In this document: positions 3,659-50,352 of the stretch, piece by piece | Position numbering within the stretch: the stretch's first letter is position 1 | Layout of the letters: every line of letters starts with the position of its first letter | Assembly (NCBI GenBank): GCA_965116875.1 | Contig: OZ220733.1 | Location: 224,001-288,000 of the forward strand | Source: Candidatus Latescibacterota bacterium | GTDB taxonomy: Bacteria; Latescibacterota; UBA2968; GCA-2709665 | Direction: 5' to 3' | Length of the DNA stretch: 64,000 nt | Program-made: the position numbers and the translations under genes | The notes under the pieces: generated by a model | Databases searched by the model: none | What the model saw: the letters and a program-made list of their open reading frames with translations, nothing else | What the model was told of the DNA's origin: nothing

Positions 3659-3888
3659 ATTACAATAAGAAATATGGAGGCAAATTCAAAACTGATTTTA
3701 GGCCTGTTGTGAAAACCGGACTCGACTCTGACTTGGTCAATGCGTCTGAATTTGATGTTTTACAACAGGCTGAATTACGTTTCCTGGACCGACGACAAGC
3801 GATCATTCTCCCGACCAATCCTTCCACTTCAATGTGTTCATTCATAGCCAGTGGTGTGCTTGTCAGCGCGAACTTGCCGAAACGTGGT

Positions 3889-3953: not shown

Positions 3954-4021
3954 CCCGCGTTTCGCTACCCATTGACTCATCCACAAACTCAGGAATCGAA
4001 AGCTCAGGATCCACCGTTTAG

Positions 4022-4211
4022 CCTTAATTCCGCAAAAGCCGCAACGCGGCACCGCGACGAAACCTTTCGAAACGGGCCGAAATGGTCGTCATGAAGGACA
4101 TTTTTTCCGTTCACGTACAGTGTCCTGGTGTATCCTGGTAATCAGCAGTTAAATCGCCTTTTTAACTGACACATATTCGAATTAACGTCCTCGAAAAATG
4201 AGGAATCAAGG
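4022..4211. mobile_element. 190-bp MITE with IS1380-like ends (copy 1)
   Basis: Terminal IRs CCTTAATTCCGCA / CCTTGATTCCTCA; TTAG direct repeat on both sides (4018-4021, 4212-4215). Homologous copies lie at 37878 and 41413, and the left end matches the IS1380 end at 18801. Confidence 0.85.
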
Positions 4212-4226
4212 TTAGCTTCTTTAGTA

Positions 4227-32553: not shown

Positions 32554-33256
32554 GGCAATTCCTTAAGCTTGAAAAAAGTCGACATACGGCAGAGTCGGCG
32601 TATGCATTTATCGTCTTTTCAGTTTTACTATTGCGTAAACGACATTCTGCAATTCAGACGGCATGGCCGTTTCGTTAAGATCGTCTATTGACGATTCCGA
32701 ATCACACAATCCGTAGAAACACTAAGACCATTCATCGGTGCCCTACCCGAGTCTTGAATTAGGTAAAATCACCAGCCATGGTGCTAACCACGCTGCAATT
32801 TCAAAAAAAAATCCTCAAGTTGATCATCCATTGAACTTTCGATTTATGGCGAACATTCGTGAGGCGATTTGTCACCTCCTGCTTTTTTCTTAAGCGAGAT
32901 GTTCTCATTCTGCCGCCTCGACCGGCCGAGAAGACGAAACGCAGACACGATTAGTGAGTAATCACTTATTCTGCATTTATGACTCCAGCAAATCTGAAAT
33001 CTAGGGGATGGTACGAACGCACACCGTCGCGCTGGCAGAAATACGTCGTGGAAATCGCTCGGCGCTTCGGATATTTCCCGGCGAACAAAGTAGCCGTTTC
33101 GACCGAAACGGCGGGCGTCAGATAGGGCCTAAGCAGACGACACCATCTGTTTCGGTTGTCCCCGACCCGCGAAGCCCATAACTACCTATCCCGTTTTTTT
33201 CTCCGTTTTAAGAGTCTGGCAGTGCGACATCTACGCGACAGGGCTGGCGAGGCGGC

Positions 33257-33304
33257 CAGACAGGAATGTCCGCCCCACCTTCAGACCGGCATCCTCAGCA
33301 TAAC
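33257..33304 (+). repeat. REP-like direct repeat (copy 1)
   Basis: cagacaggaatgtccgccccaccttcagaccggcatcctcagcataac, near-identical to 34502-34549. Confidence 0.7.
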
Positions 33305-33325
33305 AGATCAGGTGCGCGGTTACTC

Positions 33326-34462
33326 TCAGGGTGTGAAAATGAAAATCTGATCCGTAGTCGACTCCCAATCTTGACTGTCATCCCTCCACTTGATTCCGCC
33401 GGCGACCATCACGCGGCCGTCTTCAAGGAGCGTGGCCGTAGCGAAAGACCTGCGCGGGCTGATGCTGTATCCGGTATTGGAAAATGCGTGCGTGACGGGA
33501 TCATACAGTACGATATCGCCGTTGTACGAGCGGATAAGAAACACGTTGCCGGACGGCAGCAGCAGGGCGGCACTGGGATCGATCGTTGAGACGCCGGCCG
33601 GTGAAAAGGTATTGGCTTCCGGGTCGTAGATCTCCGCCGTCTGCACGGATGGCCCTCTGCCGGAGGCGCCGCCGCCTATGATCAGGACCCTACCGTCCTC
33701 CAGTAGCACCGCCTTATGATTCCTGCGGTCGAACTGCAAGTTGCCTGCTTCCGAAAGGGCTTCGGTCGAGGGATCATAGATAAGATTCCGTCCCAGCAAT
33801 CCTGGGTCCCGTCCAACATTCTGTCCTCCAACGATCAACACCCTGCCGTCCTTCAACAAAGTGGCCGTATGGCCGATTCGGGAAGGATCCATCCTGAGCA
33901 AGGTGGAGAATGGGCCTGTCGTCGGGTCGAAGACACCCGCGTATAACGTGCTGGTCAAGAAGACCTTTCCGTCGAGAAGCAGAGTGGCAGTAAGAATCCC
34001 AATTCTCCGAGGCAAAACTGCCACAGGGTTGAATCTGCCGGAATGAGCATCGTACCTCTCAATGGGGAGATTGGGATTTCCGGGGATGATCAGGACCCGG
34101 CCGTCGGGAAGCAATATTCCGTGGTCCTCGCTGCGACTGGCAGTCAGGTCTCCCGTTGGCGTTGAGGTCCCGGTTTCAGGGTCGAATATTTCCGCACTGA
34201 TGAGACGCTTCGGCTGAGGAATGGGGGTATCCGGGGGAGGCGGCCCTGCGAGTACCAGCGGCAGTTCTTCGAGGCCGCCAGCGATCAGGACCTTGCCATC
34301 GTTCAGTAACGTCGCGGCATGCCAATACCGGGGTCGGGTCAGGTTTCCAACCTCGTGAAGACCCCTTTCAAGGGCCGGCGGCTCTGATGTGGTTACCGAA
34401 TCGCTTCCGCAAGCCCACAAGCTCGTGACGACGAACAGCGCGACCAAGATTCTGGTGGTCAT
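33326..34462 (-). CDS. Kelch-repeat beta-propeller lipoprotein
   Basis: Lipobox LWAC; repeated H-x-ATLL-x-DGRVLI-x-GG and AEIYDP motifs. Confidence 0.88.
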   Translation of the reverse strand: MTTRILVALFVVTSLWACGSDSVTTSEPPALERGLHEVGNLTRPRYWHAATLLNDGKVLIAGGLEELPLVLAGPPPPDTPIPQPKRLISAEIFDPETGTSTPTGDLTASRSEDHGILLPDGRVLIIPGNPNLPIERYDAHSGRFNPVAVLPRRIGILTATLLLDGKVFLTSTLYAGVFDPTTGPFSTLLRMDPSRIGHTATLLKDGRVLIVGGQNVGRDPGLLGRNLIYDPSTEALSEAGNLQFDRRNHKAVLLEDGRVLIIGGGASGRGPSVQTAEIYDPEANTFSPAGVSTIDPSAALLLPSGNVFLIRSYNGDIVLYDPVTHAFSNTGYSISPRRSFATATLLEDGRVMVAGGIKWRDDSQDWESTTDQIFIFTP

Positions 34463-34501
34463 TTTCTGTCTCCTTCCCGACCGAAGGATACACGATGTGG
34501 A

Positions 34502-34549
34502 CAGACAGGAATGTCCGCGCCACCTTCAGACCGGATTCCTCTGCATGAC
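34502..34549 (+). repeat. REP-like direct repeat (copy 2)
   Basis: cagacaggaatgtccgcgccaccttcagaccggattcctctgcatgac; a shorter core also occurs at 55895-55915. Confidence 0.7.
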
Positions 34550-34651
34550 GGTTCCGCGCAGGCGGCGGACATCCTGCTTCTCAGGTGTCGCCGCGTGTAA
34601 ATAGCGCAGAGATGATCCCATGCTGCAGTAGATCCTTCGTCGGCCTGGGGA

Positions 34652-35075: not shown

Positions 35076-35339
35076 TTAGCTGCTCGCCAATTTACCGGAC
35101 ACATAACGAACCATAGAATTCACAGAATCGAAGAGGTCGACGCGTAATTCTTCGTCATCCACCTCAATTCCAAACTCCTGTTCAAGAGCAAAGATGATTT
35201 CTAGTGCGGCAATCGAGTCAACTCCCACGCCCTCGAAAAGCAACTCATCATCGGCAATGTCGTTAGGGTCAATACTCAGGCGGAGTGACTGGACGATCGC
35301 AGATTTTACACGCTGTCCAATGAGCGTCAATTCTTCCAT
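35076..35339 (-). CDS. Acyl carrier protein (phosphopantetheine-binding)
   Basis: 87 aa, acidic; GVDSIAALEI (phosphopantetheine Ser) and LEQEFGIEV; overlaps the upstream gene. Confidence 0.9.
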   Translation of the reverse strand: MEELTLIGQRVKSAIVQSLRLSIDPNDIADDELLFEGVGVDSIAALEIIFALEQEFGIEVDDEELRVDLFDSVNSMVRYVSGKLASS

Positions 35340-37243
35340 CCGTTTTTCTTGTCCTCGGTAAAGTGATCGATTGCCACATCAACCGCCTTTTGAATACCCT
35401 CTGCCGACGAAATACATATGGCGGGTAATCCAAAAGACCGTTCCAATTGTCCCAACTTACAGGCTACTTCGGCTTGAGTCAGCGGTCGCGGTCTTATCGA
35501 CGTTCGACCATACCTAGCCTGCACTCCCTTTTCAAAGTCTGACGTGGCTAGCAACAATGTGGGCGCGTGACAAAATGCGCGAATGCCGTTGACCGTGTCC
35601 TGAATATAGTCTTCGGGATCGACACTGTTTACCACCAATATGCAAGCATCAGGCTTCACACCCATTAAAAAAGCAATGGTGGGCAGCGTCAAAGTATGCT
35701 TGTCGCATACGTCATAGGGAACCGTTCCGGATTGGGTACCGACCAAAATGAGATGAGGTCGTGTTTGGTAGCAAATCTCGCGCATCTTCGCATCGAGAAA
35801 CGGAATATAGTATTCAGTCGGAATTCGAACAGAGGGTGCGTAGCCCATTGGAAACCCATAATCCATGCCGAATAGCTCGGAATGATGTTCAGTCCCAATC
35901 TGTGCAATCCGAAACCCTAGTTCTAGCAATCTTCGCCGGAACGCTAATTGAAGGGTAAATTTACCCTGTTGCGAACTCGTACCTACTATAGCCAAAACCG
36001 GAACATCCACTTCGGGGAGCGATGAGCATCCATCGACTGTACGGCTCGCCTCTTCAAACGACAGCTCAGGATAATACAGTCTCAATCCTTTAGAAGCAGC
36101 GACTTCATGCAAGTCACCGTACTCCGCGTGAGGTAGTGCAAGTAGGCTGAACACGTTTACTTCATTATCGAGTGCGACCTGAACGCACTTTCTAAGGAAA
36201 TCGCTCTTACGGATTCGACTCAATTCATCAACGTAACCAAGAATCAGAGTGTCTGCATGCTCCAGACACGCCGACAGCCGGGATGTGATCCGGAGACCCT
36301 TATTACACAGGCCGATTGCTTCCCCTGCATCGCTGCCGACCAATCCCTTTCCGACAGGATCGGATATGCCCACGACCTGAAAGCCCAATAGGTCATTCGC
36401 ACGAACTACGGCGTGCATTTCCTTATTATACGGGTAGAGGCAGGCCTTGCGTATCCACGAGAAGCGATCCTCTGCAGCAGACGGGACCTTGATGGATGAC
36501 GCAGGGTTTGTTACGAGAGGAGGCGCCGTTTCGGATACTGCGTGGTTACTCAGAATCTCACGGATCTGTTGCAAGCAGGCACCAGGGTAAGCCTGCCGGA
36601 TTAGCGCGATCAGACCGGTTATATGTGGCGCAGCGAAACTGGTACCGCCCATCATTATTTCCTTCGGCTCCAACCAACACACCCGTTGGGGGTCGCCGCG
36701 CGCAATGCACTCAATCGGTCGACCGGCGCGATAATAGTAGTCGTACGGGCCAAGCAACGCACCCGAACCGACACCAATGACGTCGGCTAACAACGCAGGA
36801 TACGAGTCACGTCCCTCGTTATTTGCGGATGCTACCAAAAGAGTACCAACGCTGACTGCATTGCGACAGACGTTTGCCAACTCGTCACGATAAGCGATAT
36901 CCGTTGTTCCCAAGCTTAGATTTACAATGTCGATTCCGTGCGCAACTGTCCATTCGATGGCCGCTATGAGCAGTCGTGGTTCCGTCGACAAGGATTCGTC
37001 AAAAACTCGGATACTATAAATTGAGGCGTCCATCGCTTTCCGCCGGATAATACCTGCACAGGCCGTTCCGTGACCCACGCAGTCTTCAAAATCAGAACCA
37101 TAGATTAAATCCCCTGCTTTACCGACTGATATAGAAACCCCGTCTGTCAACGGACCAACCTTCGGGTGGTCCGGCACGATGCCACTATCTATAACTGCGA
37201 CGGCAACGCCGCGTCCGGTCAAGTTTGAAAACGGAAAACTCAT
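35327..37243 (-). CDS. S8 subtilisin-like peptidase fused to a DUF1611/TIGR04066-like P-loop domain
   Basis: Catalytic triad VAVIDSG / GHGTACAG / GTSFAAP. The C-half has LYPYNKE...GLVGSDAG and VPVLAIVGTSSQQGKFTLQL...GFRIAQIGTE. No signal peptide. Confidence 0.85.
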   Translation of the reverse strand: MSFPFSNLTGRGVAVAVIDSGIVPDHPKVGPLTDGVSISVGKAGDLIYGSDFEDCVGHGTACAGIIRRKAMDASIYSIRVFDESLSTEPRLLIAAIEWTVAHGIDIVNLSLGTTDIAYRDELANVCRNAVSVGTLLVASANNEGRDSYPALLADVIGVGSGALLGPYDYYYRAGRPIECIARGDPQRVCWLEPKEIMMGGTSFAAPHITGLIALIRQAYPGACLQQIREILSNHAVSETAPPLVTNPASSIKVPSAAEDRFSWIRKACLYPYNKEMHAVVRANDLLGFQVVGISDPVGKGLVGSDAGEAIGLCNKGLRITSRLSACLEHADTLILGYVDELSRIRKSDFLRKCVQVALDNEVNVFSLLALPHAEYGDLHEVAASKGLRLYYPELSFEEASRTVDGCSSLPEVDVPVLAIVGTSSQQGKFTLQLAFRRRLLELGFRIAQIGTEHHSELFGMDYGFPMGYAPSVRIPTEYYIPFLDAKMREICYQTRPHLILVGTQSGTVPYDVCDKHTLTLPTIAFLMGVKPDACILVVNSVDPEDYIQDTVNGIRAFCHAPTLLLATSDFEKGVQARYGRTSIRPRPLTQAEVACKLGQLERSFGLPAICISSAEGIQKAVDVAIDHFTEDKKNGWKN

Positions 37244-37354
37244 CGCACCTGTTCACGAAAAAGCTAAAGGAGGACGGCGATATTCTCACGAATATCGCAT
37301 TGCCAGGAAATCGGTTAGAGTTGTTTCCCCCAACTTCTCCTAAAAGCAGAAATA

Positions 37355-37846
37355 CTAACCTCCGTCATCGGTCTCGGTTGCCACCGGAAATCCCGCCTCG
37401 GCCCACAACGGCCATCCACCGGAAAGCACCCTGACGTTTGCATATGTGAATTCTCGTGCGAGGCGCCGCGCTACATCATAGCTACTCATACATGTAGCAT
37501 TTGCACAGTAGACGATAATATCGGTATCCGCCGGATAAGGCTCAAGCACACGATGCAATTTGGAAGTCGAATAGTGATATGACAGACGGACAGCACCCGG
37601 AATATGCCCACCATTAAATGCCTCAGCCGAGCGAGCATCTACAAATAACGCTGCTCCCCTGTCATATTGGTGCTTAGCTTCAACTAAATCCAATGTCCCA
37701 ATAGCCTGTTCTTCTAAAGTGCCGACATTTGCAAGAGGAAGTCCAGCCACCGTCCGCCGGGCATAAAACCACTCGGTCAATTGAAGGACGGCACAATACA
37801 TCACAATTAATATGAATACCAGTGAAACTATAACCCATCGCCACAC
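37355..37846 (-). CDS. Membrane-anchored rhodanese-like protein
   Basis: N-terminal TM; FVDARS..AF..GHIPGA, IIVYCANATC and VLSGGWPLW. Confidence 0.85.
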   Translation of the reverse strand: MWRWVIVSLVFILIVMYCAVLQLTEWFYARRTVAGLPLANVGTLEEQAIGTLDLVEAKHQYDRGAALFVDARSAEAFNGGHIPGAVRLSYHYSTSKLHRVLEPYPADTDIIVYCANATCMSSYDVARRLAREFTYANVRVLSGGWPLWAEAGFPVATETDDGG

Positions 37847-37877
37847 GAATTCGTATCCAATTCGGGACTCTTATTAA

Positions 37878-38067
37878 CCTTGATTCGAAAGTCCCCGGGG
37901 ACGTTAATTCGAATATGTGCTTGAAATAAAGGCGATTAGACGGCGGAAACCGAGGATACACCAGGTCACTGGACGTGAAGGGAAAAAACATCTTTCTTTA
38001 TGTCGACAACGCCCCGTTTCGGAGGGTTTTATCGCGTCGCCGCGTTGCTGTTTTTTTCGGATTGAGG
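37878..38067. mobile_element. 190-bp MITE with IS1380-like ends (copy 2)
   Basis: CCTTGATTC...ATTGAGG with TTAA direct repeats (37874-77, 38068-71); diverged homologue of 4022-4211. Confidence 0.8.
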
Positions 38068-39750
38068 TTAATTGCGTGCCGTTGAAAAAAAACTGTTTAA
38101 GAAACTTTGTTTCTGGAGCAACGCCTGAGGTTGACCCTGTTCAACTACGGTGCCGTTATCAATGCAGATCACTTCATCCACATTTCGGACGACGTTTAGT
38201 CTATGACTGATAACTAGGATTGTCTTTCCAGCAAATATCCGTCGGACATTTCGAAGAATCGTGTGTTCATTTTGGGGATCCAAAGCTGCGGTCGCTTCGT
38301 CCATGATTAGCAACTCCGCAGGATTCAACAAGGCTCTAGCAATTGCAAGCCGTTGTCGCTGCCCACCCGACATCTGTACTCCTTGCTCTCCTATAGTTTC
38401 ATGTTGATTCAGATCGTTCAGACCAACCATCTCCATGACGCGGTCGATTTCTGATGAGTTATACCGAGCCGATCCGTACCGGATATTCTCGCCGACGCTA
38501 TCGTGAAATAGGTGGACTCGTTGGCTAACCAAACTGATATTACGCCTCAAGTCCGACAGTTCGAATTCTCGCATTTGAACATTGTCAATGTTGATGCAAC
38601 CTCGATCGGGAAGATGAAGCCCACAAAGCAAATTGGCAATCGTCGACTTTCCACTTCCACTCGCACCTACCAAAGCATACGATTTCCCTTTTGCCATACT
38701 AAATTTCACTCCTCGAAGTACTGTCTGACTCTCAAAACTAAAATAAACATCTTGAAGGTCAATCTGCCTCCCGAAGGTAAACTGTTTTCGTCCAGCAAAA
38801 AAACCAACCTCCGAGGGAATCTGCATAAACTCCAACACGCGACGCATGGAAACCAACCCTCGAACGAGCCCAATGTACATATCGTGCAGGTTCCGGACTG
38901 GCTGGAAAAGACGTACCGAGTACTGTAGGAAGGCAACTAGAGCGCCAAGCGACATGACGTCTTGCATAACCTGATACGCTCCGAATCCCATAATGAAGAG
39001 GGGGGTTAACGCGGCCAACCCTCCTGACACACTATTCATTGAGGCATAGTACAGGACATTGCGCATGATTAATTCAATTAGATCATCCGACATAAAACGA
39101 AATCTATCGGTTTCTCGCCTCGAACTATTCGTAAGTTTAATTAATGAGACGTTTTTAAATCGTTCAATTACGTAGCTGGAGATGTCGGACCCCTTTTTCT
39201 GAATCTTTTCGATATTCCGTCTAATCCTAGGCTGAAAATAGGTCAGATTTAATACAAACAACGGGACGCCGATTACAGTCAGCAAAAAAAGGGAGGCATT
39301 TAGCCACATCAACAATACGATCAGCCCAATCAAAGTCAGGACACTGTGGATCGAGTGCAACGCGCTGGAAGTCAGCATCGACTCAATCACTGCCACATCA
39401 CTATTGAGCCGGTAGACCAAATCTCCTGTCTTTCGATTGTCAAGTGAGCTTATCGGTAAATCCAACAGCTTACGAAACATCCGCACTCGCATATCCCGAA
39501 CAATGCGATTACTGCACCACGCGTAGAGGTAGTTTGATGCGAAAGACAAGATCATATTAGTTAACATCAAACCGCAGAGAAGTCCTATCGCGACTAGAAG
39601 AGTGGTATATTGTTTGGCTGGAATTATGTCATCGATAATCGTCTTCGTAATGTACGGTGGAGCTAAGGAAACCGCAGTGGTAAGGACAAGACAGATCACA
39701 ACGATTAATCCCTTAAAGCGGTAGGGATTCAGGAATTTGGCAAATCGCAC
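38068..39750 (-). CDS. ABC exporter, fused permease/ATPase (no C39 domain)
   Basis: 6-TM domain, GASGSGKST, MSGGQRQR, LIMDEAT and ISHR. Confidence 0.93.
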   Translation of the reverse strand: MRFAKFLNPYRFKGLIVVICLVLTTAVSLAPPYITKTIIDDIIPAKQYTTLLVAIGLLCGLMLTNMILSFASNYLYAWCSNRIVRDMRVRMFRKLLDLPISSLDNRKTGDLVYRLNSDVAVIESMLTSSALHSIHSVLTLIGLIVLLMWLNASLFLLTVIGVPLFVLNLTYFQPRIRRNIEKIQKKGSDISSYVIERFKNVSLIKLTNSSRRETDRFRFMSDDLIELIMRNVLYYASMNSVSGGLAALTPLFIMGFGAYQVMQDVMSLGALVAFLQYSVRLFQPVRNLHDMYIGLVRGLVSMRRVLEFMQIPSEVGFFAGRKQFTFGRQIDLQDVYFSFESQTVLRGVKFSMAKGKSYALVGASGSGKSTIANLLCGLHLPDRGCINIDNVQMREFELSDLRRNISLVSQRVHLFHDSVGENIRYGSARYNSSEIDRVMEMVGLNDLNQHETIGEQGVQMSGGQRQRLAIARALLNPAELLIMDEATAALDPQNEHTILRNVRRIFAGKTILVISHRLNVVRNVDEVICIDNGTVVEQGQPQALLQKQSFLNSFFSTARN

Positions 39751-39789
39751 AATCGCGTTTATTGATGAGATGTGTGGCTCCGCGGAAAA

Positions 39790-40482
39790 CTAAAAGGGAT
39801 CACTGAGGACACCGCGCCCCTTGATTAACTCCAATAGAGACATACCGTGCATTTCTTTCAAGGGTGAATCAGCGAAACCCTCAACATTAATCTCAAAAGC
39901 AGGCATATGATTGTAAACAAGATCAACGAAGAACAAGGATGTGAATTGCTCCGCTTGGATTAGAGGAAGGTGGCATCGAATTATCCTGTTTTCTGGACTG
40001 ACAAGAAAAACCACAGGAGTTCGCACGAACAACCCATCGGAATCCTCTGGTTCTAGCGGAACACCTAACTGAAACGTCAACCTGAAGGCTCGCTTAAATT
40101 TAGTCAATTCTGATTGATCCCCATTTGAAATGGCGTAAATCGGCATCTCTAAGGAGTCCTTTAGGTTGTCGTGGATGTGTTGCAGCGCCCGTAATATTAG
40201 ATTGATGCAAGGTTGGCACGAATTCGGCGAAAACAAAAACACCAAGCCGGTCTTTGATCCTGAAAAGTCAGTACTTACCGTATCATTGCCAGTCGTGCGA
40301 ATTGACAATTTTGGAAATCCGCGACCGACTATCAGATCCTGCCGGTAGGTATTGACCACAAACGTGCGGTAAAACCGTAGATCGGTGAGATGTAATTTGA
40401 ATAACCAGGCGAGGGAGACGACTAGACCAATTAGGAAAAGCAGATTCGATACTACCAATAATCTCGTTATCCGCATAATCAT
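39790..40482 (-). CDS. Membrane-anchored thioredoxin-fold (redoxin-like) protein
   Basis: N-terminal TM; LVFLFSPNSCQPC (CxxC) and RTPVVFLV (cis-Pro motif). Confidence 0.7.
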   Translation of the reverse strand: MIMRITRLLVVSNLLFLIGLVVSLAWLFKLHLTDLRFYRTFVVNTYRQDLIVGRGFPKLSIRTTGNDTVSTDFSGSKTGLVFLFSPNSCQPCINLILRALQHIHDNLKDSLEMPIYAISNGDQSELTKFKRAFRLTFQLGVPLEPEDSDGLFVRTPVVFLVSPENRIIRCHLPLIQAEQFTSLFFVDLVYNHMPAFEINVEGFADSPLKEMHGMSLLELIKGRGVLSDPF

Positions 40483-40819
40483 ACCGAAACTTTACAACAA
40501 CCGTCGTTGCAGTCCATAGAGGTTATTGTAGTTTCTCGAATGAATTCTGTACGGTTCAAAACCACAACAAATCGACGGCCAACGGGTATTTGCCCTACGC
40601 TTCGGCGGCCGTCGCACACAGATGTTCTTGCGGGCACTGGTCATCTTCCGAACGCAGGCGCGCATCCTAAGATCCGGACTCACCCTCGACAAGACCACGC
40701 CAAACCACCTACGCAGCGCATTCGACAGACTCGAAACTTTGATCGACCAACATTGCGATCATGCCAAACTCGCTGCTTGAAGCTTGACTCAAACACCACA
40801 AAAACCGCCGACTAAGCAG

Positions 40820-41003
40820 GCTAGGGCTGCAGAAAGAATGCGCCAACCCAAGCTATTGCCACTGGCTCTCTGTGCTCTTTGCGCTGGATGAAGCCTTCCC
40901 CAAACACGACATCAACCCCGCTGGCCGCGTAAGATCGAAGCGATTTCCCAGCCGCACACTGGCGACAACCAATCCCATAGAATCCACGTTCACCACCGCA
41001 GCA
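40820..41003 (+). pseudogene. IS256 (mutator-family) transposase relic
   Basis: Frameshifted, deleted fragments APTQAIATGSL, ALDEAFP../RHQPRW and DFPAAHW/TTNPIESTFTT match the IS256 C-terminal pattern FPAEHW..LRTTNPIESTF. Confidence 0.6.
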
Positions 41004-41074
41004 GAGGGATTCTTCGATCCAATGAACAGCACCAATATCATACGTTTAACGTACTTACCGAAGTTAACGAAAGA

Positions 41075-41100
41075 CCGAAATACGGATCCGATCCACCATT
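41075..41100. repeat. Downstream arm of the inverted repeat flanking the precursor gene
   Basis: ccgaaatacggatccgatccaccatt, complementary to 41368-41396 apart from 3 single-nt bulges. Confidence 0.8.
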
Positions 41101-41120
41101 TCAGTCAACGAGAGTAATAC

Positions 41121-41342
41121 CTAAATGTTATACCATTCCGACCAATAGGTATCTCCCGAATTACAAAGGGCAACTTCGATCTCATTCGTGGCATCGCAAG
41201 AATAGTGGTCTCTCCGCTGCAACTGACCATTGTGGCACCTTTTTTCGAATTTGTCGTTGAACCATTGATATCCATCGTACCATTCGTACGCGTATATCAA
41301 TGTATCCTGTCGACGGTTCCGTGGTTTTCGTAGCAAGTTCAT
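41121..41342 (-). CDS. Putative RiPP precursor peptide (73 aa)
   Basis: GGGAGG RBS; MNLLRKPRNRRQDTLIYAY-EWYDGYQWFND...C...C...C...YWSEWYNI. Basic leader ending in AY; located between the rSAM/SPASM gene and the exporter/protease genes. Confidence 0.75.
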   Translation of the reverse strand: MNLLRKPRNRRQDTLIYAYEWYDGYQWFNDKFEKRCHNGQLQRRDHYSCDATNEIEVALCNSGDTYWSEWYNI

Positions 41343-41367
41343 GTTGCCTCCCTTTTGAGAGTTTGAG

Positions 41368-41396
41368 AATTGGTGGATCGGAATCCGTAGTTTCGG
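41368..41396. repeat. Upstream arm of the inverted repeat flanking the precursor gene
   Basis: aattggtggatcggaatccgtagtttcgg; pairs with 41075-41100. Confidence 0.8.
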
Positions 41397-41412
41397 CAAA
41401 TCGCAAAGCAAA

Positions 41413-41601
41413 CCTTGATTCCTCATTTTTCGAGGACTTTTATTTGAATATGTGTCAGTTAAAGAGGTGATTAGACTGCTGACTACCAGGATGCATCAGG
41501 ACACTGTACGTGAACGGAAGAAATGTCCTTCCTTAAGACCATTTCGGCACCATTCGGAGAGTTCCGTCGCGTCGCCGCGTTGCGACTTTTTCGGATCGAG
41601 G
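41413..41601. mobile_element. ~190-bp MITE with IS1380-like ends (copy 3)
   Basis: Reverse-complement homologue of 4022-4211 over its whole length; flanks CAAA / CTAA. Confidence 0.82.
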
Positions 41602-41651
41602 CTAATGAATGAGATAGATGCATCGATCGGATAAATCGACACGATTTACAG

Positions 41652-42875
41652 CTAGTTATTTGCACCAAAGTCAAGCGCATAGACAGCCACATTGCCATTG
41701 GAATTTTCCGACTCTGCTGCCGACGGCTCACTCCATACATACAACTGATCCCGCGAAGATGCTATACTATTCCACGGGACCGATATAACTTCGGATTCGA
41801 GGTGCTCCTTTGCTGACCTACTAAAGTCATAGACTCCGACGGCCTCTTCTGTGTCGAGGTCGTAAATCGACCAGTTGGTAATACTTGCGACGGTCGTGTC
41901 CTCGGTCGTGCCAGGGTTTATGTGCGAAACCATCAAAAATCGACCATGGACGATTGTCATGCTACTTACAGTTGTCATTTTCAATCCTCTCATATCTTCA
42001 CGACTCCCTTGTTCAATTCCATGATACCTTGTCGGCAACGGTACATATCCTTTCGGACGACGACCAAATCGCCTGATGGTTATCCCAGTCTCGGCGTCGA
42101 TTTCTCTAACCATGTAGTCGTTTGGTCCCAGGAAATACAGCCTATTCCGTACCACGCTGTAGCATAGATGCGCAAAGGCTTTCATGCGATATGAGATAAA
42201 CCTCTGGGAATTGGTAGAAAGAGCCACGCGATACACAACATCCCATCCGGACGGTTCAAGGCGTCGCAATTCCATTATCTTCATCGGGTTTACCATCAGT
42301 ACGAAGACCTCGCCCAATCTACCCGTTAACACCCTGGTGGCATGTAGTAACCGTGTCGTGTCCACATGTTTCCCGGCTCTGTCATATCGGACAATCTGGC
42401 CATAAGTTGAATCCAACAGGTACACCATACCCTGCGGGTCTATTGACATATAACGAGCACTGCCATATTCGCCTGGTCCGCGACCCTGACGACCAAACGA
42501 CTGGATATAGCGTCCGTCCGAAAGGTCAAATTCATGTGCTCTTTCACCAATCCGGTCGGTAAGCAGTAGAGTGTTATCCCGTGTCACACCTATCCAGTTT
42601 GCCTCACCAATCCCAGGTGTTTTTTCGTTAAAGTCCAGACTAAATTGGCGCTTCAAATCAAGACCGATTTCGCCGATATATTCCAACTTCGTTTCGTGAA
42701 TGGACTCTTCGTTGGCCTCGTGAGGCGAAGACTTCGAATACGTCTCCTTCGACTGGTCCGGCACTTGTGCAACCGCCCGGCCGTTTCCGGAAACAAGAAC
42801 GACCGTAAGTAAAAAAACAAAAAGACTGAACATTCTTTCCGGCCAATGACGTCCAGCTAACGTGCTCTTCTTCAT
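41652..42875 (-). CDS. Exported 6-bladed beta-propeller (NHL-like) protein
   Basis: Signal peptide; FDLSDGRYIQSFGRQGRGPGEY, IDPQGMVYLLD and YDRAGK. Confidence 0.8.
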   Translation of the reverse strand: MKKSTLAGRHWPERMFSLFVFLLTVVLVSGNGRAVAQVPDQSKETYSKSSPHEANEESIHETKLEYIGEIGLDLKRQFSLDFNEKTPGIGEANWIGVTRDNTLLLTDRIGERAHEFDLSDGRYIQSFGRQGRGPGEYGSARYMSIDPQGMVYLLDSTYGQIVRYDRAGKHVDTTRLLHATRVLTGRLGEVFVLMVNPMKIMELRRLEPSGWDVVYRVALSTNSQRFISYRMKAFAHLCYSVVRNRLYFLGPNDYMVREIDAETGITIRRFGRRPKGYVPLPTRYHGIEQGSREDMRGLKMTTVSSMTIVHGRFLMVSHINPGTTEDTTVASITNWSIYDLDTEEAVGVYDFSRSAKEHLESEVISVPWNSIASSRDQLYVWSEPSAAESENSNGNVAVYALDFGANN

Positions 42876-42989
42876 CGTGAACTCCTTTCGAATTTGTGCT
42901 GTGTCATTGTGTAATGGTTACGTGCGTAACCATATTATAATACAATGACTTGGGTACGGAAACCACCTCTTTTGTGAATTATTCAGGCT

Positions 42990-43290
42990 TAGTATGCATG
43001 ACGTCGCCGATACCCCAGCGACACAATTGGATTCTCACGTTCACCTTTTCTCCGACGACGGCGGCCTTCCACCTTCAAAACACCGTTCGCCTCACGCATT
43101 ACCTCTCTCGAGGCCTGCTAAACCTTCACTCGCGTTACGGACTGTATACTTGCAAGTTGCCATGCGACCTATACACCGGAGCTTAGGACAACTCGATGCT
43201 TTCCTGCCTGCTTTACTTGCAACCGACGGCGGCAACATTGGGCTGGTGCGACTCTCTCCCACAAGAGTTCCGCACCTTTTCACGGCGTAT
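42990..43290 (-). mobile_element. Probable degenerate group II intron 5' fragment (domain I)
   Basis: The minus strand begins ATACGCCGTGAAAAGGTGCGG (cf. GTGCGCCGTGAAAAGGCGC) and contains CCGTAACGCGAGTGAA..GGCCTCGAGAGAGG. No RT ORF or domain V was seen. Confidence 0.5.
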
Positions 43291-43361
43291 GGTTGTCGAA
43301 TTAACGCTAATCACACAATAATGTACGAGGAGGCTCGGTTGATCGAGTTTTATAAGTAGCT

Positions 43362-44819
43362 TCACTCGGCATCACCTTGATTAACCAATCTTAGATTGTA
43401 CCTCTCCTGCAACAGTTTCTTGTCCGTGTTTTGAATTTCTATACACATTTCCATGGCGAGTTCATAGCTATAACGGATCTGTTCGCACGAGACAGGGTTC
43501 GGATTTATCGGGTCCCCAGTTGCAGTCCGGGCATCATATATACACCCGCCCCCACACAGGTTTCTTGCCCAGCAACGCCGACAGTCGGAACGGGAATCGA
43601 CATGGAACGAATCTTTGAATCCATCCTGGACATTTTCGTCAAGACCAGAGAAGACGTCGCCCATCTTAAACTCCGGCCGGTCGGCAAGACTTGAACAAAA
43701 ATAGATGTCGCCTTCTACATCCACGGCCAGAAATGTCCTCCCGCCTTGACAGCCATAACATGATTTCGCGCGAGTCATTAATCGTTCGATAAAACGGTCG
43801 AAAAATCCTCTCTCGTGCGACCCTTCCAGAATGTTCGCCGTCTCATGCCGGCTTAAACCGCAAAGTCTGCGCTTTATTTCAGGCAGATGCTCCTCGCGCA
43901 GCGCATAAGGTTCTTCAGGTGCAGCAACGACAGGAGCCACTCTAACACGACATGCGCCAAGTTGCCTCAAATCATCAGCAATGGACTCCCTGTCCAGATT
44001 GTACGAAGTCATTGTTGCGCGTACCGATACCTTATCCGGTGACTCTTTCGTCAATTTCAACAGGTTCTCGGCCACCACATTGTACGTTTCACTGCCATCT
44101 CGAAACTTCCGCAGTCGGTTTTGGTCTCTCGGGTTGCCGTCGACACTAACCTGAATGTGAATTTCCTCATCAATTAGAAACTGTAAGATTTCATCCGAAA
44201 TTAGAGTGCCATTAGTTGCGATACCAAAAGAGACCTGAACCCCAACCCGATGGGCATACTCACGGGCAAAGGGAATGATATCTCGAATTAACTCGAAGTT
44301 CAGGAGCGGTTCCCCACCGAAAAAGTCTATCTGACACCTGCCGAACGAGCGAGCTTCACTCAGTGCCCATCGTACAGCCTGCCTTGCTACATGCGGCGTC
44401 ATAAATCCCGGTACCCTTCCGTAGTCGCCGCCATGTGCGAAGCAATAGGTACATTTGACGTTACAGGCGTGCGAAACGTGTAACGTGATGTGAAATTGAC
44501 TCTCACGGGGCTCGGACTCTGGCAATCCGCAGATCCCTTGATCCGGCCCCTGTGTATCTGAATGAAGTTTCAGCGAGGCATCGTATATGAGCTGGGCTTC
44601 GGCAAGGACCTCAACTGCCTTTAACACGTCCTCGCCAGGAAATTCATCGGCCAATTCAAAAACGACTTCCTGGTCCGTTAGTCCGTCGCAAATCTTGAGA
44701 ATCGACTCATAGAGCGGATTCAGTTCAAAGAACAGTCCCGTGTAAACCTGAAACAAAAACGTACGTTTCGACTGGGATGTTCTGAAAAGATGCATTTCAG
44801 ACTTTGCGATTCGTAGCAC
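43362..44819 (-). CDS. Radical SAM/SPASM peptide maturase with N-terminal RRE (CteB/PapB/QhpD-like)
   Basis: CNVKCTYC, FFGGEPLLN, IATNGT, VSVDG; SPASM Cys set CQGG...IYFC...CRRCWARNLCGGGC...SC; PqqD-like N-terminus. The start is uncertain (44795, 44819 or 44969). Confidence 0.9.
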   Translation of the reverse strand: MLRIAKSEMHLFRTSQSKRTFLFQVYTGLFFELNPLYESILKICDGLTDQEVVFELADEFPGEDVLKAVEVLAEAQLIYDASLKLHSDTQGPDQGICGLPESEPRESQFHITLHVSHACNVKCTYCFAHGGDYGRVPGFMTPHVARQAVRWALSEARSFGRCQIDFFGGEPLLNFELIRDIIPFAREYAHRVGVQVSFGIATNGTLISDEILQFLIDEEIHIQVSVDGNPRDQNRLRKFRDGSETYNVVAENLLKLTKESPDKVSVRATMTSYNLDRESIADDLRQLGACRVRVAPVVAAPEEPYALREEHLPEIKRRLCGLSRHETANILEGSHERGFFDRFIERLMTRAKSCYGCQGGRTFLAVDVEGDIYFCSSLADRPEFKMGDVFSGLDENVQDGFKDSFHVDSRSDCRRCWARNLCGGGCIYDARTATGDPINPNPVSCEQIRYSYELAMEMCIEIQNTDKKLLQERYNLRLVNQGDAE

Positions 44820-45183
44820 TTCCTCTGCCCCCAATACCCGACACACAAACAACCGATATACTATTGGGCTGTATGCTTTTCCCGTGGAGTGGGTCCATTC
44901 TGTGATTTTTTGATTGTGACCGCGTTTGTCATTGGTGGCGGCAGAATGGGGAACCACGGCCATTCGCACAACGTCGCTTCAATAGGAGTCGTCGATCCAA
45001 AGCATCCGCAAATTTTCCCCCTATTGTCTGAAACACCGTTGACCGGGAACAGTGAAGGTTTGGGATTATTCAGTGCCATTATCGTCCTCCTTGCCCGTTC
45101 AGCTTTGCGCGTCTCTATACTACAATGGAGATCAAACACGTGGCGCCAAATCCATCATGCAATTAATGCTATGAATGGGATGC

Positions 45184-45199
45184 TGCAAACCACGTACCC
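45184..45199 (-). promoter_or_regulatory. Candidate sigma54 (-24/-12) promoter facing the rSAM gene
   Basis: Minus strand GGGTACG-TGGT-TTGCA gives GG-N10-GC, with 2 mismatches to TGGCACG-N4-TTGCW; AT-rich DNA lies upstream. Confidence 0.5.
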
Positions 45200-45465: not shown

Positions 45466-48400
45466 TCAACGCAGACCATAACGCGTCATCATCTTCTGAA
45501 GTCCATTTCGGCTGAGACCTAAATGAGCGGCAGTATGAGAAATGTTCCCCTTGCATTTGTCAAGTGCCGCGGCTATCATCCTTTTTTCAAGGGCAGCCAC
45601 CTCCGATTTTAGATGTCCTCGCGAACCTTGTTCGGCGTCTTGACGATGTTCAATCCTCTTCGAGAATAGATCGACGGAAACCTTCTTTCCTTCTTCAACC
45701 AACGCAACCGCGCGTCTTATCTCATTCTGCAATTCACGGACATTGCCCGGCCACGCGTGATCCATTAATCCCCGCATTGCACCCACTGTAAAGCCCAGTA
45801 CTTCCTTTCCCTGCTCCGAAGAAACACGCTTCAGTATATGTTCCGACAACGAAGGGATGTCCTCAATACGGTCACGCAGTGGAGGCATTTCAATCTGTAA
45901 AACGCGCAGCCGGTAATACAAGTCCTCCCGAAAAAGACCGGCACGCACGTCCGCTTCCAGGTCGCGATTCGTCGCTGCAATCACCCGAACGTCTACGTGG
46001 CGAACATTAGTCTCTCCTACTCGCTGTGTCTCCCCATCCTGCAGTACGCGCAACAGGCTTATTTGCAATTGCGAAGAGGCATCCCCGATTTCGTCTAGAA
46101 ACACGGAACCGCCCTCCGCGGAGGCGAATAGTCCCTTGCGGTCGGATGAAGCCCCGGTAAATGAGCCTCTCTTGTGACCGAACAGCTCGCTCTGAAGCAG
46201 TTCGTGGGTAAGCGCCCCGCAATTTGCGGAGAGAAAGGGTTTCGCCTTGCGGTTGCTCCGGGTATGGATAGCCCGGGCGGCCAGTTCCTTCCCCGTTCCC
46301 GTCTCACCCTGTATAAGCACAGTCATGTCGCTTTCAGCCGCCACGTCGACCAGTTTGAACACTTCCTGCATCAGCTGACTCTGTCCGATAAGTTCTCCCA
46401 TTCGGTAGGTGCCCTCGTATTTTTCCTGGAAAAAAAGTGCCTGCTCCTGGCTCCGGGAGAACATCCGGGCGTTGACAACCGCAATGGAGGCCAAATTCGC
46501 AAATGCCGCAAACAAGGCTGTGTCTTCTTCGCGAAACAAATCTTCTAGCTTTCTATGGTCCAAATACAGCGCGCCGATGACACCCGATTCCGCATGCCGC
46601 AGTGGAACGCAAAGCACCGATCGGATGCCGTAGGCCGAAACGCTGGCCCTTTTTCTGAATCGATCGTCAACGCGAGCATCCAGACTCAATACGGGCTCGT
46701 GCCGCTGCATCGACCACCTGATTATTCCCTCGCTGATCTCCCTTGCAGCTAAGTCATCCAGATTATACTTACGCGCAACCTTGACGCGACCGGCTGCCCC
46801 ATCCTCGATAGCAATCAAAACACGTTCGGCCTGGCTCACCTTCTTCAGTCGGTCCAGAATTCGATCAAGTAGCACATTCAGGTCCAAGACCGACGTCAAA
46901 TCTTCGGATACTTCATAAAGGGTCTGCAGATGCTCTTGGGAAAGCGCCGTAACCTTCGCCTCTGGTGTAATAGTCATCGCAGTTTCCTCAATAACCAGGT
47001 TTAGGAGATCCGCTGCCTTTCGGGCCAGATAACGCAGATTCAAGCGTTCGGCAGCCTCACGGGCATTTTCCAGGCACCCTCGGGCATCGGCAAGACGCCG
47101 CCGTTCCAGATAATACGCGCCCGCTACAACGAACAGGTTTACCTGTTCCAAGCCGTCCGGGGAACCCTGGACTTCCAATGCATGATCAATCAGGGAATCG
47201 ACTTCGTCATGACGGTCGGCCGCGACGAGCGATTTCGCCTTTGCGGTCCATGCAATGGCGCGGACATTCCCGCCGTACTCCACGCCCGGCCAGGCCCGTT
47301 CGGCCCAGGCCAGCGCCTCTTCAACACGGCCGGTTTCCGCGAGTGTCTCGGCCAGCAACGCATGGGCGCGGCACATTTCATCGGAGCGGCCGGTACCCGA
47401 CAGAAGCCGCACTGCGGCACCCGCGTGTGCTTCTGCAGCCTCGGCATCTCCGTTTTCCAAGGCAACCCTGCCCAAAAACACGAGTGATCCTGCCTCCGCA
47501 GGTCTCGAACCGCGTTTGGCCCAAAAGTCTTTAAGCTCAAGGAAAATCTCCTCGGCCCGATCAAAATTACCCAACCGATTCTCTGCACGTCCCAAAAGGA
47601 AAAGACAGTTATGGCGATAAGCTCGATCGCCGTTCCTCTCTAATAGATTTAATGAAGAGTCCAGGAGCTTTTTCGATCTGTCATTACGATAAGTAAACTG
47701 CGCTGCAAACCCCAGATGCATCAAAGCACGGGCTTCGTTGATAGACCCTCCCATTTCGCGGCATTTTTCAGCTGCTGAATGACAAAATCCCGCAGCAACC
47801 TCTTTTTTCCCTAGCGCCACGTAGAGATTTGACAACAGACCCAAAACCCTAAGTTCATTCTCCGCCTCGCCCTGATTCCGGAAGAGTTCCAGCGCTTCTA
47901 ACAACATCGACTCAGCTCTTTGGCAGTCCCCGCCATTCACGTAGGTAATTCCTAAAATCCTCAACACATTCGCCCTTTGCGCGGGCATTTCAAAGGACGC
48001 CCACTGCATGGCACCTTCCAACTCGCGGCGCGCGTCTTCGTACCTGCCGCATCCGCAAAGCGCTTCGGAGTAAGCGCAGAGAAAGTCGAGATGCATCACC
48101 GAACCGCGCGCAATGCAAACGGGGGCATCAGGGGAAAACGCGCCTTTTTTGAGAACAGTTCGGAACTGTTCGAGTGCGTGCGAGAAATATTGCATCCCCA
48201 ATGCAAAGCGGCCGGATAAGGTGACGTACCGCGCCATTTTTTCCAGGTCGTTCGATCTCAAAAAGTGATAGGCCAATTCATCCAATGACTCTGCGGCGCC
48301 GCAATCCAACCGTCTTTCTAAGGCGCTGCCTGCCTCCTGGTGAAGCAACGTACGTCTGTTTAACGATATGCCGTCGTAAACCGCCCGTTGGATCAGTCCA

Positions 48401-50352
48401 TGTGAGAACCGATAACGTCCACGAGGGTCCTGCATATCTCTCAAAAGGCCCAGGCTGACGTTTGCATCCACCGTCTCCAATAACTCCAGTTCATCCTCGC
48501 ACCAGACGTCTGAAATCAGCTCGAACGAAAACGCGCCGCGAAAGATTGATGCATATTCCAGCGCCTGCCTTTGGGCCGAACGAAGTCGTCCCAGGCGCAA
48601 CTTGATGGCCTGCATAATGCCCGACGGCATTGGCCATTCCGTCTCCTTCGGCCACCTCCAAATTCCTGTTGAATCCTTCCATATCAAGCCGTCGGCAATT
48701 GCTCCCCGAACCAATTCTACGACAAACAGTGGATTCCCCCCAGTTTCCTGGAAAACCCTACGATTCTCTTCCTCAGGTACAGCCTGTTCTCCAAGCAGGG
48801 ACGCAGCCAGATTCCCAGTTTCGTCCATATCGAGAGGCTGGAGACGAAAATGTTCAGCTCGAGTTCCAATTGGCCCATCTGTCAGGTCGTCGATTCCAGG
48901 GGGTAGCGGATCTTCGTCCACCTTGCGGCAAGCGAGCCCGAAGACGAGAGGTACGGGATCCGGATCTCTCCTCACAAAGTCCAGGAACCGCAGGGTCAGG
49001 TCGTCGGCCCACTGCACGTCTTCAATGCATACAAGGGTCGGCGTTTCCCTGCTCAGATCGACGAGAAGTTCCGACAAGGTCTCCATCGCCGGGTACGGAT
49101 CCGGCTGATCGGCGGGCGCCGGCCGTTCAATTTGCGTAAGAACTCGCTTGACGGATTCTTCCAGGTCTGGACCCCGAACGCCGGTCTGATCGGCCAGGTC
49201 TCGCAGGATTTCCAGGAATGGCCCAAAGGCTTGGCCCCCGCTCTCATAGCAACGTCCTGATTGTACGCGCATTCCGTTGACGCGGGCGTCGGCCTGGAAT
49301 TCTTCAAGAACTTGGGTCTTCCCGATGCCAGCACTGCCGCTCACGAGAATGATGCGCCCTATACCCTCGCGAGTATCCTGCAGGATCTTCCGTAGAGCCT
49401 TCATCTCACGTTCTCGACCCTGGAACTGGGGTTGGAAAACGGGAACGTCTGGGGCACCCAAGACAGGCCGCATTGAAACGGTAGCTTCGTCACCGTCTCT
49501 ATAGAATCCGCTTTCCTCGTTATTCGTCAAATCATACAGCAAGCTCCCTACCGAACTGTAGCGGTCAATGGGTTCCTTCTCGAGAAGCTTCATTACTGAC
49601 TCTTCGATCCCCGAGAAATCTTCGCCGGTTACAAGGTGCGGAGGGCGCGGCAATTCTTTCAGATGCTGAAGCAATACCGTTGCTGGATCTTCTCCCGTGA
49701 ATGGTGGTTTCCCGGTAAGAATCTCGTAAAGAATGACTCCCAATGAATAAAGGTCGGATCGCTGGTCAACTGCCTTTCCCCGGATCTGTTCGGGGGACAT
49801 GTACTCCAAGGTCCCGGTAGCCGCTCCGGGAGCCGAGAGGCGTTCCTCCCTTACATCTCTAAATCGCGCCAGACCCAGGTCCAGAATCGTAACCTCGGGC
49901 TTACCCTCAATCTCTGAAATCATAATATTTGAGGGCTTCAGGTCTCTGTGCAACACACCCTGTTCATGGATGTATCCCAACCCTTCTACAGTCTGGCGGA
50001 TAAAGGGAACGAGCCACGCGGATTTTAGCTTTTCACGATCATCTACTCCTGAAATCAGGTCGGACAAGGGACGACCATGGACAAAGTCCATGGAAAAATA
50101 CGGACTCCCGTCGTGCGCGCCCCAGCTGTGTGAAATAACAACTCGAGGATGTCGGATTCGAGACAAGATATTAAACTCCCTCAGAAATCGCCTTTGTGCC
50201 CCGTCCCCCGTGAGATCTAATATCTTAAGCGCTGTAATGGAATTTTTCCGTACGTCCCGCGCACGATAGACGGTACCTAAACCTCCATTTCCAACGGTAT
50301 TGAGGATCTCGTAACACCCGTCGACAACCGTGCCAGCCTTTAATTCGGACAT
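45466..50352 (-). CDS. Ser/Thr kinase - AAA ATPase - TPR - GAF - sigma54-dependent Fis-family activator
   Basis: Kinase [25 protein letters not shown]; GSAGIGKT; GAF; b[38 protein letters not shown]; C-terminal HTH. Confidence 0.92.

Follow-up and report, generated by a model that had tools for sequence, protein, structure and literature searches.

Why should a short open reading frame (ORF) inside an apparent bacterial operon be bordered on its two sides by sequences that are complementary to one another? The question is raised by a 64,000-nucleotide (nt) stretch of contig OZ220733.1 from a Candidatus Latescibacterota bacterium, here called the window, in which an ORF of 73 amino acids (aa) plus stop, rich in Cys and Trp (41121..41342, minus strand), is a putative peptide precursor gene and is flanked by two arms that can pair into a long-range helix. 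The complementarity is strong and beyond chance, it brackets one cistron, and the same architecture recurs with different sequence at related loci. We conclude that the helix with its enclosed gene probably represents a genuine element of RNA control, one of a type that few bacteria are seen to have.

Read as minus strand, the stretch 41396-41368 can pair with 41100-41075. The full 5' arm of the helix spans 41367..41397 and the 3' arm 41075..41102 (both minus strand; the cores first proposed were 41368-41396 and 41075-41100), the U-rich run UCUUUCGUU comes directly after the 3' arm, and each arm contains a short palindrome, CGGATCCG or CGGAATCCG. In one register the helix comprises 6+7+11+2 = 26 base pairs (bp), and the 5' arm carries three 1-nt bulges; a second register is just as good, adding 41367 and 41102-41101 to reach 27-28 bp, with one A.A mismatch and two bulges. 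The two or three extra bases are thus confined to the 5' arm in both registers. The 5' arm lies 25 nt ahead of the ATG (41342-41340) and the 3' arm 20 nt past the TAG (41123-41121). The first-pass annotation had described a 26-bp duplex with three single-nt bulges on one arm, 25 nt before the start and 20 nt after the stop, and its coordinates, geometry and distances all proved exact. The energy of the arm-arm duplex is -44.1 kcal/mol (RNAduplex). When the minus strand of 41060-41410 was folded, as the annotation had suggested, the minimum free energy (MFE) structure was closed by the arm helix at -118.1 kcal/mol (z -6.09), and none of 100 shuffles folded equally well. All 28 arm-arm pairs were kept when 30, 150 or 300 nt of context was added on each side, so that pairing between the sequences upstream and downstream of one ORF in one RNA is predicted both by MFE and by pair probabilities.

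A window-wide scan for gapped inverted repeats spaced 100-600 nt gave the arm pair a score of 21.5, which 0 of 40 whole-window dinucleotide shuffles reached (their maxima ranged from 13.0 to 19.0), and a single site in the window, 3913-3936/4245-4268, was stronger. In a stem test aligning the 200 nt upstream of the ORF with the 250 nt downstream, with a small bonus for G.U pairs in the sense orientation, the window scored 21.75, a value matched by none of 500 dinucleotide shuffles of the ORF flanks. Because real genomes carry more inverted repeats than shuffled sequence does, a second null was added, made up of 4,762 pseudo-sites with matching geometry, taken from either strand of the window and of 15 related loci; the window score was reached by 11 of these (0.23%), the site itself among them. 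An alternative measure, RNAduplex applied across the whole 160-nt flanks, was replaced by gapped local alignment since it allowed very large loops and was uninformative, with shuffles scoring similarly.

Homologous precursors were recovered by synteny only. The enclosed ORF has no Pfam or NCBIfam match, a word-index search of 5.8 billion proteins returned its own cluster only (1 of 1 candidates), and an exhaustive HMMER search of 1.84 billion representatives at E <= 1e-3 gave two matches, the query and P0002; the latter, a 732-aa repetitive, Ig-like and animal-looking protein (E 2.4e-4), was rejected as a chance match. A search of the entire window against Rfam gave no hit at gathering thresholds, and within 41050-41660 there was no hit even at E <= 1. 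As anchor we used the product of the gene upstream, an exported 6-bladed beta-propeller protein (DUF5128; 41652..42875, minus strand, with its stop at 41652), which has many relatives. A profile scan with one genome per species gave 16 loci (L001 to L016), all from metagenome-assembled genomes of Candidatus Latescibacterota or Gemmatimonadota. In L002, L004, L005 and L009, the last a Gemmatimonadota locus, a small ORF directly follows the propeller gene and is itself followed by a gene of about 230 aa; an ATP-binding cassette (ABC) exporter comes next in L002, L004 and L009, and a rhodanese and an S8 fusion are present in L002 and L004, whose downstream genes are ordered as in the window. L005 ends at a contig end just past the ~230-aa gene, and L009 is also partly covered. 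L003 is a 98%-identical strain with unchanged arms, and hence is uninformative on conservation, while L006-L016 hold paralogues of the propeller gene in other settings, lack an adjoining precursor and were left out of the stem test.

In the window ORF the leader reads M-x-x-L-x-K...(R/K)R...AY, and the core contains three Cys and many Trp and Tyr residues. Its alignment with five syntenic small ORFs shows that those of L002, L004, L005 and L009 share the leader M-x-x-L-x-K...(R/K)R...AY...W, and that the Cys-containing cores of these four are only 22-38% identical to the window peptide. The shared leader and the Cys-containing cores support naming the 73-aa ORF a precursor.

In the stem test, the precursor flanks of L004 scored 18.75 (0/500 shuffles as high; arms 7112-7141 and 7489-7515) and those of L005 scored 18.0 (2/500; arms 7205-7235 and 7550-7577), values that 42 and 75, respectively, of the 4,762 real-sequence controls reached (top 0.9% and top 1.6%). 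A Fisher combination of the empirical fractions for L004, L005 and L009 gave p = 0.0024, and 7.5e-5 with the window included. In a matched control that set each 5' flank against the 3' flanks of the other loci, the window, L004 and L005 scored higher with their own flanks than any of the 18 non-homologous cross pairings (maximum 17.0), and the L004 and L005 stems were kept in both the MFE structure and the pair probabilities with 30-300 nt of extra context. Extra bases occur only in the 5' arm, three in L004 and three in L005 as against two or three in the window, and no 3' arm has any. The window, L004 and L005 have arms of mutually unrelated sequence; what recurs is therefore the pairing rather than a motif. 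In L004 the arms stand off from the start and the stop by 37 and 103 nt, respectively, and in L005 by 23 and 27 nt; across the loci the 5' arm ends 23-37 nt ahead of the start and the 3' arm begins 15-103 nt past the stop. In comparison with L002, L004 holds some 89 further bases in the interval from precursor stop to 3' arm (L004:7386-7488), with a 13-bp hairpin among them that was read by eye, and the 103-nt distance is explained by this additional sequence.

The position of the arms bears on whether they share a transcript with the neighbouring genes. The spacer between the propeller gene and the precursor is 75-115 nt in the other loci as against 309 nt in the window, the latter because a copy of a repeated element described below is inserted between the propeller gene and the arm. 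In L002, L004 and L005 the spacer is 75-97 nt and the arm begins 8-35 nt past the propeller stop, a gap that makes a separate promoter unlikely at these three loci, favours co-transcription and leads us to expect the arm inside a polycistronic RNA. Promoter scans of the window found no sigma-70-like site in 40400-41750 (2.0 expected), the promoter types of this phylum lying outside the scan models, so that the window could still have a promoter shortly ahead of the 5' arm; the sigma-54 pattern matched 89 times in the window against 90.3 expected, and the minus strand of the propeller-precursor spacer had no match.

The ribosome-binding site is left out of the helix. In the window the Shine-Dalgarno sequence GGGAGG (41347..41352, minus strand) stands 4 nt ahead of the ATG and inside the loop, separated by 14 nt from the end of the 5' arm at 41367, and there is no overlap of the arm with the leader site of the type seen in icaR (see below). 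The Shine-Dalgarno sequence is likewise inside the loop and apart from the helix in L004, L002 and L005. In the window MFE structure GGGAG (41347-41362 region, minus strand) pairs with a CUCUC run 4 nt upstream, and this small local hairpin within the loop could, if the fold is correct, mask translation. A pyrimidine run just ahead of the Shine-Dalgarno sequence was also seen by eye in L004, L002, L005 and L009.

Mismatches within the stems carry information on the strand. When the arms were aligned without the wobble bonus, the mismatches in L004 were all G.U in the sense orientation (3/3) and those in L005 were two G.U and one A.G, with no A.C in either locus. All five transition-type mismatches of L004 and L005 therefore fall on the sense side (p 0.03), and G.U accounts for five of the six mismatches of any type. 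Duplex energies for the sense and antisense strands, respectively, were -38.3 and -26.9 kcal/mol in L004, -41.4 and -36.2 kcal/mol in L005, and -27.8 and -19.5 kcal/mol in L009. To judge from these comparisons, the evidence favours a sense-strand RNA helix over a DNA feature, moderately rather than decisively. The first-pass annotation had preferred an RNA panhandle to a DNA inversion site on the grounds that the arms are bulged; the preference is supported by the L004 and L005 stems and the G.U bias, but the argument from bulges did not hold up, since bulges alone do not discriminate between the two.

How might such a helix act? In clusters for peptide natural products the substrate peptide is required in large excess over the enzymes, and the known routes to this are separate promoters and leaky terminators. 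We propose that the sense-strand messenger RNA (mRNA) panhandle serves most probably as a processing or stability module that isolates the precursor cistron, a model for which we judge the case to be evenly balanced. The helix would close the cistron, from Shine-Dalgarno sequence to stop codon, into a loop of about 270 nt within a longer operon transcript. With the extent of a ribosome footprint at start and stop codons taken from general knowledge, the arms would sit just beyond the space that a ribosome occupies there, and the helix may therefore persist during translation, through both initiation and termination. Stems for RNase III-type enzymes have a size threshold of about two helical turns (~20 bp or more), and double-stranded RNA of about this length or longer is predicted in the window (26-27 bp), L004 (27 bp) and L005 (~27 bp); this length would suffice for a double-strand-specific endonuclease of the RNase III type, and the helix is probably a substrate for a double-strand RNase. 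Cleavage would free the precursor cistron from the upstream propeller gene and from the transporter and protease genes downstream. Paired ends usually protect an RNA, and the cut cistron would keep its base-paired ends and resist exonucleases, while an uncut helix would still shield both ends of the cistron; by either route the precursor message would be uncoupled from the enzyme messages. We infer that the helix exists in the cell, that it is acted on by a nuclease and that more rather than less precursor mRNA results. It is plausible, as the annotation had proposed, that the panhandle excises or stabilises the precursor mRNA and so raises the peptide-to-enzyme ratio, and a conserved precursor-bracketing helix would then be a further, post-transcriptional route to substrate excess.

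The genes around the precursor, all on the minus strand, are in keeping with a peptide substrate. Upstream of the propeller gene lies a radical S-adenosylmethionine (SAM)/SPASM maturase (43362..44969), whose best NCBIfam matches are nif11-type, SCIFF, PapB and QhpD, all under the family cut-offs. Downstream of the precursor come a thioredoxin-like membrane protein (39790-40482), an ABC exporter (38068-39750), a rhodanese (37355-37846) and an S8 (subtilisin-type) protease fused to a DUF1611/TIGR04066-like domain (35327-37243), for which QhpE is the best match. A leader-plus-core peptide gene thus lies near a radical SAM/SPASM maturase, a protease and an exporter, as in radical SAM/SPASM clusters for peptides that are ribosomally synthesised and then modified post-translationally (RiPPs), and from its gene content we assign 35327-44969 as a peptide-maturation cluster. 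It reaches no equivalog threshold (229 bits against a cut-off of 453 for the QhpD-type match; 143.8 against 165 for QhpE) and so stands outside every named equivalog family. A QhpC/D/E/F set matures the cross-linked small subunit of quinohemoprotein amine dehydrogenase (PMC7876137). The window cluster resembles this set in its QhpD-like radical SAM protein, QhpE-like subtilisin, ABC exporter, small Cys/Trp-rich peptide and beta-propeller, and by analogy the peptide might be a partner to which the exported propeller protein is cross-linked and not a free natural product.

Further upstream, a 1,628-aa fusion protein combines a Ser/Thr kinase with an AAA/TPR region, a GAF domain and a sigma-54 activator (45466-50352, minus strand). 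A sigma-54-type promoter-like site, GGGTACGTGGTTTGCA (two mismatches; 45184-45199, minus strand), adjoins the gene for this fusion and lies about 215 nt upstream of the radical SAM gene. Elsewhere in the window, the sole mobile-element gene seen encodes a DDE transposase (DDE_Tnp_1_4; 18818-20197, minus strand), and a 62-nt direct repeat (84% identical; 33248-33309 and 34493-34554) flanks a Kelch-repeat gene (33326-34462).

A number of observations count against an isolating panhandle, and some of them favour instead a neutral origin, in which the complementarity is a leftover of local duplication or insertion and the L004 and L005 matches are genomic background repeats. Long-range inverted repeats are not very rare, there being 11 with a score of at least 16 in 197 kb, and the real-sequence null is largely coding DNA, unmatched to intergenic DNA. 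Only four independent lineages carry a precursor, and two of the four, L002 and L009, lack a convincing stem: both scored 13.0 (48/500 and 99/500 shuffles as high, respectively), which 1,282 of the 4,762 real-sequence controls also reached, and neither own-flank score was above the cross-pairing maximum. L009 offers a weak candidate stem only, which never appears in the MFE structure. The L002 stem was kept with 30 nt of context and was gone from the MFE structure at 150 nt. Its arms are homologous to those of L004, and of the 27 pairs 16 are invariant, four switch between G-C and G.U, two are compensated on both sides and five are broken in L002, three of these as A.C/C.A mismatches, making it a decayed homologue of the L004 stem; the covariation count, from these two sequences only, was matched in 243/500 shuffle controls. 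The first-pass annotation had looked to homologous precursor loci for the arms, and this expectation was borne out by the L004 and L005 stems, albeit in unrelated sequence, but not by the decayed stem of L002 or by L009, where no stem is significant. L001, which has no recognisable precursor, scored 10.75 when its flanks were tested, with 324/500 shuffles as high and no stem. Adding L002 (two G.U, three A.C/C.A) brings the count of G.U-type to A.C-type mismatches to 7 to 3 (p 0.17), and by energy the L002 duplex favours the antisense strand (-25.6 sense, -31.3 antisense kcal/mol) and that of the window is strand-neutral (-43.6 and -43.7 kcal/mol). No ribonuclease III domain was found among the 33 window ORFs scanned, in a domain scan that was not aimed at RNase III and was confined to the 64-kb window. 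Finally, were the cluster Qhp-like, the peptide would be a stoichiometric subunit, which would weaken the rationale of a raised peptide-to-enzyme ratio. The region is also prone to insertion, with a copy of the repeated element upstream and 470 nt extra downstream in L003. A neutral origin nevertheless has to accommodate three independent, non-homologous duplexes at the same gene boundary, each in the top 0.2-1.6% and with a combined p of 0.0024 without the window, as well as bulges that are always on the same arm and mismatches biased to sense G.U, and we regard it as unlikely.

As the main alternative, the helix could be read with the opposite sign, as a decay or repression signal at which a double-strand-specific RNase removes or silences the precursor cistron until the helix opens. 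The cis duplex of yabJ-spoVG acts in this way, and repression is reportedly also described for icaR (PMC3868564). The sequence data do not fix the direction of the effect, and a local hairpin pairs part of the Shine-Dalgarno sequence in the window MFE structure. The arms are, however, clear of the Shine-Dalgarno sequence and start codon in every locus, and cleavage in the centre of the helix would leave the cistron with paired ends, which are generally protective; repression by the helix thus seems improbable. Less probable still is a termination or read-through device, in which the 3' arm or the next hairpin would be an attenuator and pairing with the 5' arm would set transcription into the transporter and protease genes. 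Very stable hairpins do follow directly after the 3' arm or candidate arm in L004 (7514-7549, -28.7 kcal/mol), L002 (7465-7492, -26.0), L005 (7583-7622, -25.3) and L009 (7495-7533, -29.2), with z of -4.2 to -8.0 and ahead of the next gene, and the cinA-cinM inverted repeat is a proven attenuator that sets precursor-to-enzyme stoichiometry (PMC5408092). These hairpins have no U-run after them and use bases other than those of the 3' arm; they are local stem-loops separate from the arm that they adjoin. The window has no counterpart, and its next gene lies 590 nt beyond. The window 3' arm can fold on itself (-14.6 kcal/mol) ahead of UCUUUCGUU, but this fold is like that of shuffles (z -1.55; 12/200 as good), a terminator scan gave no hit at the arm, and a panhandle of -44 kcal/mol would always outcompete a hairpin of -15 kcal/mol, so that no switch is evident. 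At the DNA level, the arms might be the inverted repeats of an invertible or mobile cassette, or paired operators for a DNA-looping regulator: the repeats flank a complete small gene, each arm holds a short palindrome, and an extra copy of the 3'-arm core in L003 shows that the motif can be duplicated as DNA. Against this, the 33 window ORFs scanned include no tyrosine or serine recombinase and the sole transposase lies 21 kb off, so inversion is without support. Across the window and the 16 loci the arm-precursor-arm segment matches only itself and its L003 orthologue, once in each and in the same orientation and position in these two genomes, which is not the multi-copy pattern of a mobile element. 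The arm sequences differ wholly between the window, L004 and L005, arguing against a conserved protein site; the wobble pattern is strand-specific in L004, L005 and L009, and the bulges would break the arm identity that site-specific recombinases need. A DNA-level role is thus very unlikely. An integron attC-like site was considered on account of the one-sided extra bases and was rejected, on the general features of such sites and a reading of the sequence, with no integrase among the 33 scanned ORFs; attC hairpins have extra bases on one arm, and they are short and follow the cassette ORF instead of enclosing it.

Beyond the locus itself, the isolating panhandle could be one case of a wider arrangement, in which RiPP-type operons of Latescibacterota carry a maintained cistron-excision cassette: a panhandle of ~27 bp with extra bases in the 5' arm only, mostly accompanied by a strong 3' hairpin, from which a double-strand-specific RNase would excise an end-protected precursor mRNA and so set stoichiometry, the one-sided bulges directing or limiting cleavage and the repeat at 3913-3936/4245-4268 being a second instance. 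We put this forward as speculation that we ourselves find doubtful. The repeat at 3913-3936/4245-4268 (extended, 3907-3948/4235-4276) is the strongest long-range inverted repeat of the window, 24 bp perfect and 308 nt apart, and its flanks are arrays of CCCTGAGC and CGAAGGGT, three each; it might represent another panhandle, here enclosing a small RNA, or else an array of repeats.

What this repeat encloses is copy A (4018-4218, minus strand) of a structured element of ~195 nt, of which copies B (37875-38071) and C (41406-41595), both plus strand, are also in the window. The three are 72-86% identical to each other, and the element is 71.5% identical to a copy in another Latescibacterota genome; copies outside the window are found at L005:5242-5426 and at L003:7276-7480 and 11288-11478, with partial ones in L007 and L016. 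It is intergenic, in either orientation to its neighbours, with a highly conserved core, mutually pairing ends and, at one end, a GC hairpin and a T-run. Its consensus folds at -31.9 kcal/mol on the T-run strand as against -20.9 kcal/mol on the other, with four pairs changed on both sides for each strand. It has no Rfam match, and might constitute a family of small-RNA genes or else a miniature mobile element. No inverted repeat flanks copy B, copy C or the L005 copy. Copy C is the insertion between the propeller gene and the 5' arm, and is apart from the helix; the 5' arm was rejected as part of the repeat, as the three copies align from 41406 onward only.

Other repeats were noted at the related loci. 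L003 has ~470 extra bases in the spacer after the precursor (L003:8319-8788, against window ~40562-40565), with a 4-nt microhomology at the junction; among these bases is a further partial copy of the 3'-arm core, 650 nt downstream (L003:8435-8449; 20 nt, 1 mismatch), that is absent from the window and could pair with the 5' arm at -37.3 kcal/mol, enclosing ~930 nt. In L015, a 600-nt intergenic region (3100-3690) contains ATCCTGTCCATCCTG and its complement in both orientations and gives very high inverted-repeat scores; the L015 inverted repeat 3211-3259/3631-3679 was rejected as a bracket, being an array of short motifs that encloses no gene.

The organism is known from metagenome-assembled genomes only, and for a phylum without cultured members the arms with compensatory mutants would provide a testable construct. 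The bracket could also help to locate, in genomes, short precursor genes that escape detection by sequence.

How does the precursor helix compare with known systems? The processing stems of ribosomal RNA (rRNA) and the RNase III sites of T7 early mRNA are formed by distant complementary flanks, of about two or more turns and often bulged, whose cleavage releases the enclosed RNA. They differ from the present case in that they enclose rRNA, or are local hairpins between phage cistrons. In Staphylococcus aureus icaR, the 3' untranslated region (UTR) reportedly pairs with the Shine-Dalgarno region and blocks translation, whereas the window Shine-Dalgarno sequence is in the loop, outside the helix. 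Pairing of the 5' and 3' ends of the one icaR mRNA has been reported (PMC3868564). Closer in form is Bacillus subtilis hbs, where a 14-bp duplex joins the 5' and 3' UTRs of a monocistronic mRNA and acts on an RNase Y site (PMC5737220). In both cases a long-range duplex spans the flanks of one short ORF, and in hbs it modulates ribonuclease access and message stability; the window duplex differs in being 26-27 bp long, with one-sided bulges, and apparently within a polycistronic transcript. The yabJ-spoVG operon of S. aureus has a cis duplex in its transcript that is an RNase III substrate and gives gene-specific control (bioRxiv 10.64898/2026.09.18.752551). That duplex joins the 5' UTR to the intercistronic region and represses the downstream gene, whereas the window arms bracket exactly one cistron.

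Among peptide clusters, the nearest parallel is the inverted repeat between cinA and cinM of the cinnamycin cluster, an attenuator (PMC5408092). It too is an RNA structure beside a RiPP precursor gene that sets the precursor/enzyme ratio, and the hairpins of L002, L004, L005 and L009 resemble it; however, it is a local transcriptional hairpin, whereas the helix described here spans ~270-350 nt and a local hairpin is absent from the window. We found no report of a stem around a RiPP or bacteriocin precursor gene in the literature searched, which comprised mostly non-subscription texts and may have missed older papers on lantibiotic transcripts. The present helix differs from the known cases in bracketing a complete cistron together with its ribosome-binding site, in its longer duplex with one-sided bulges, in recurring in several lineages with changed sequence and in its place within a peptide-maturation cluster, and it would add a sequence-independent example to the very short list of bacterial mRNAs with paired 5' and 3' flanks.

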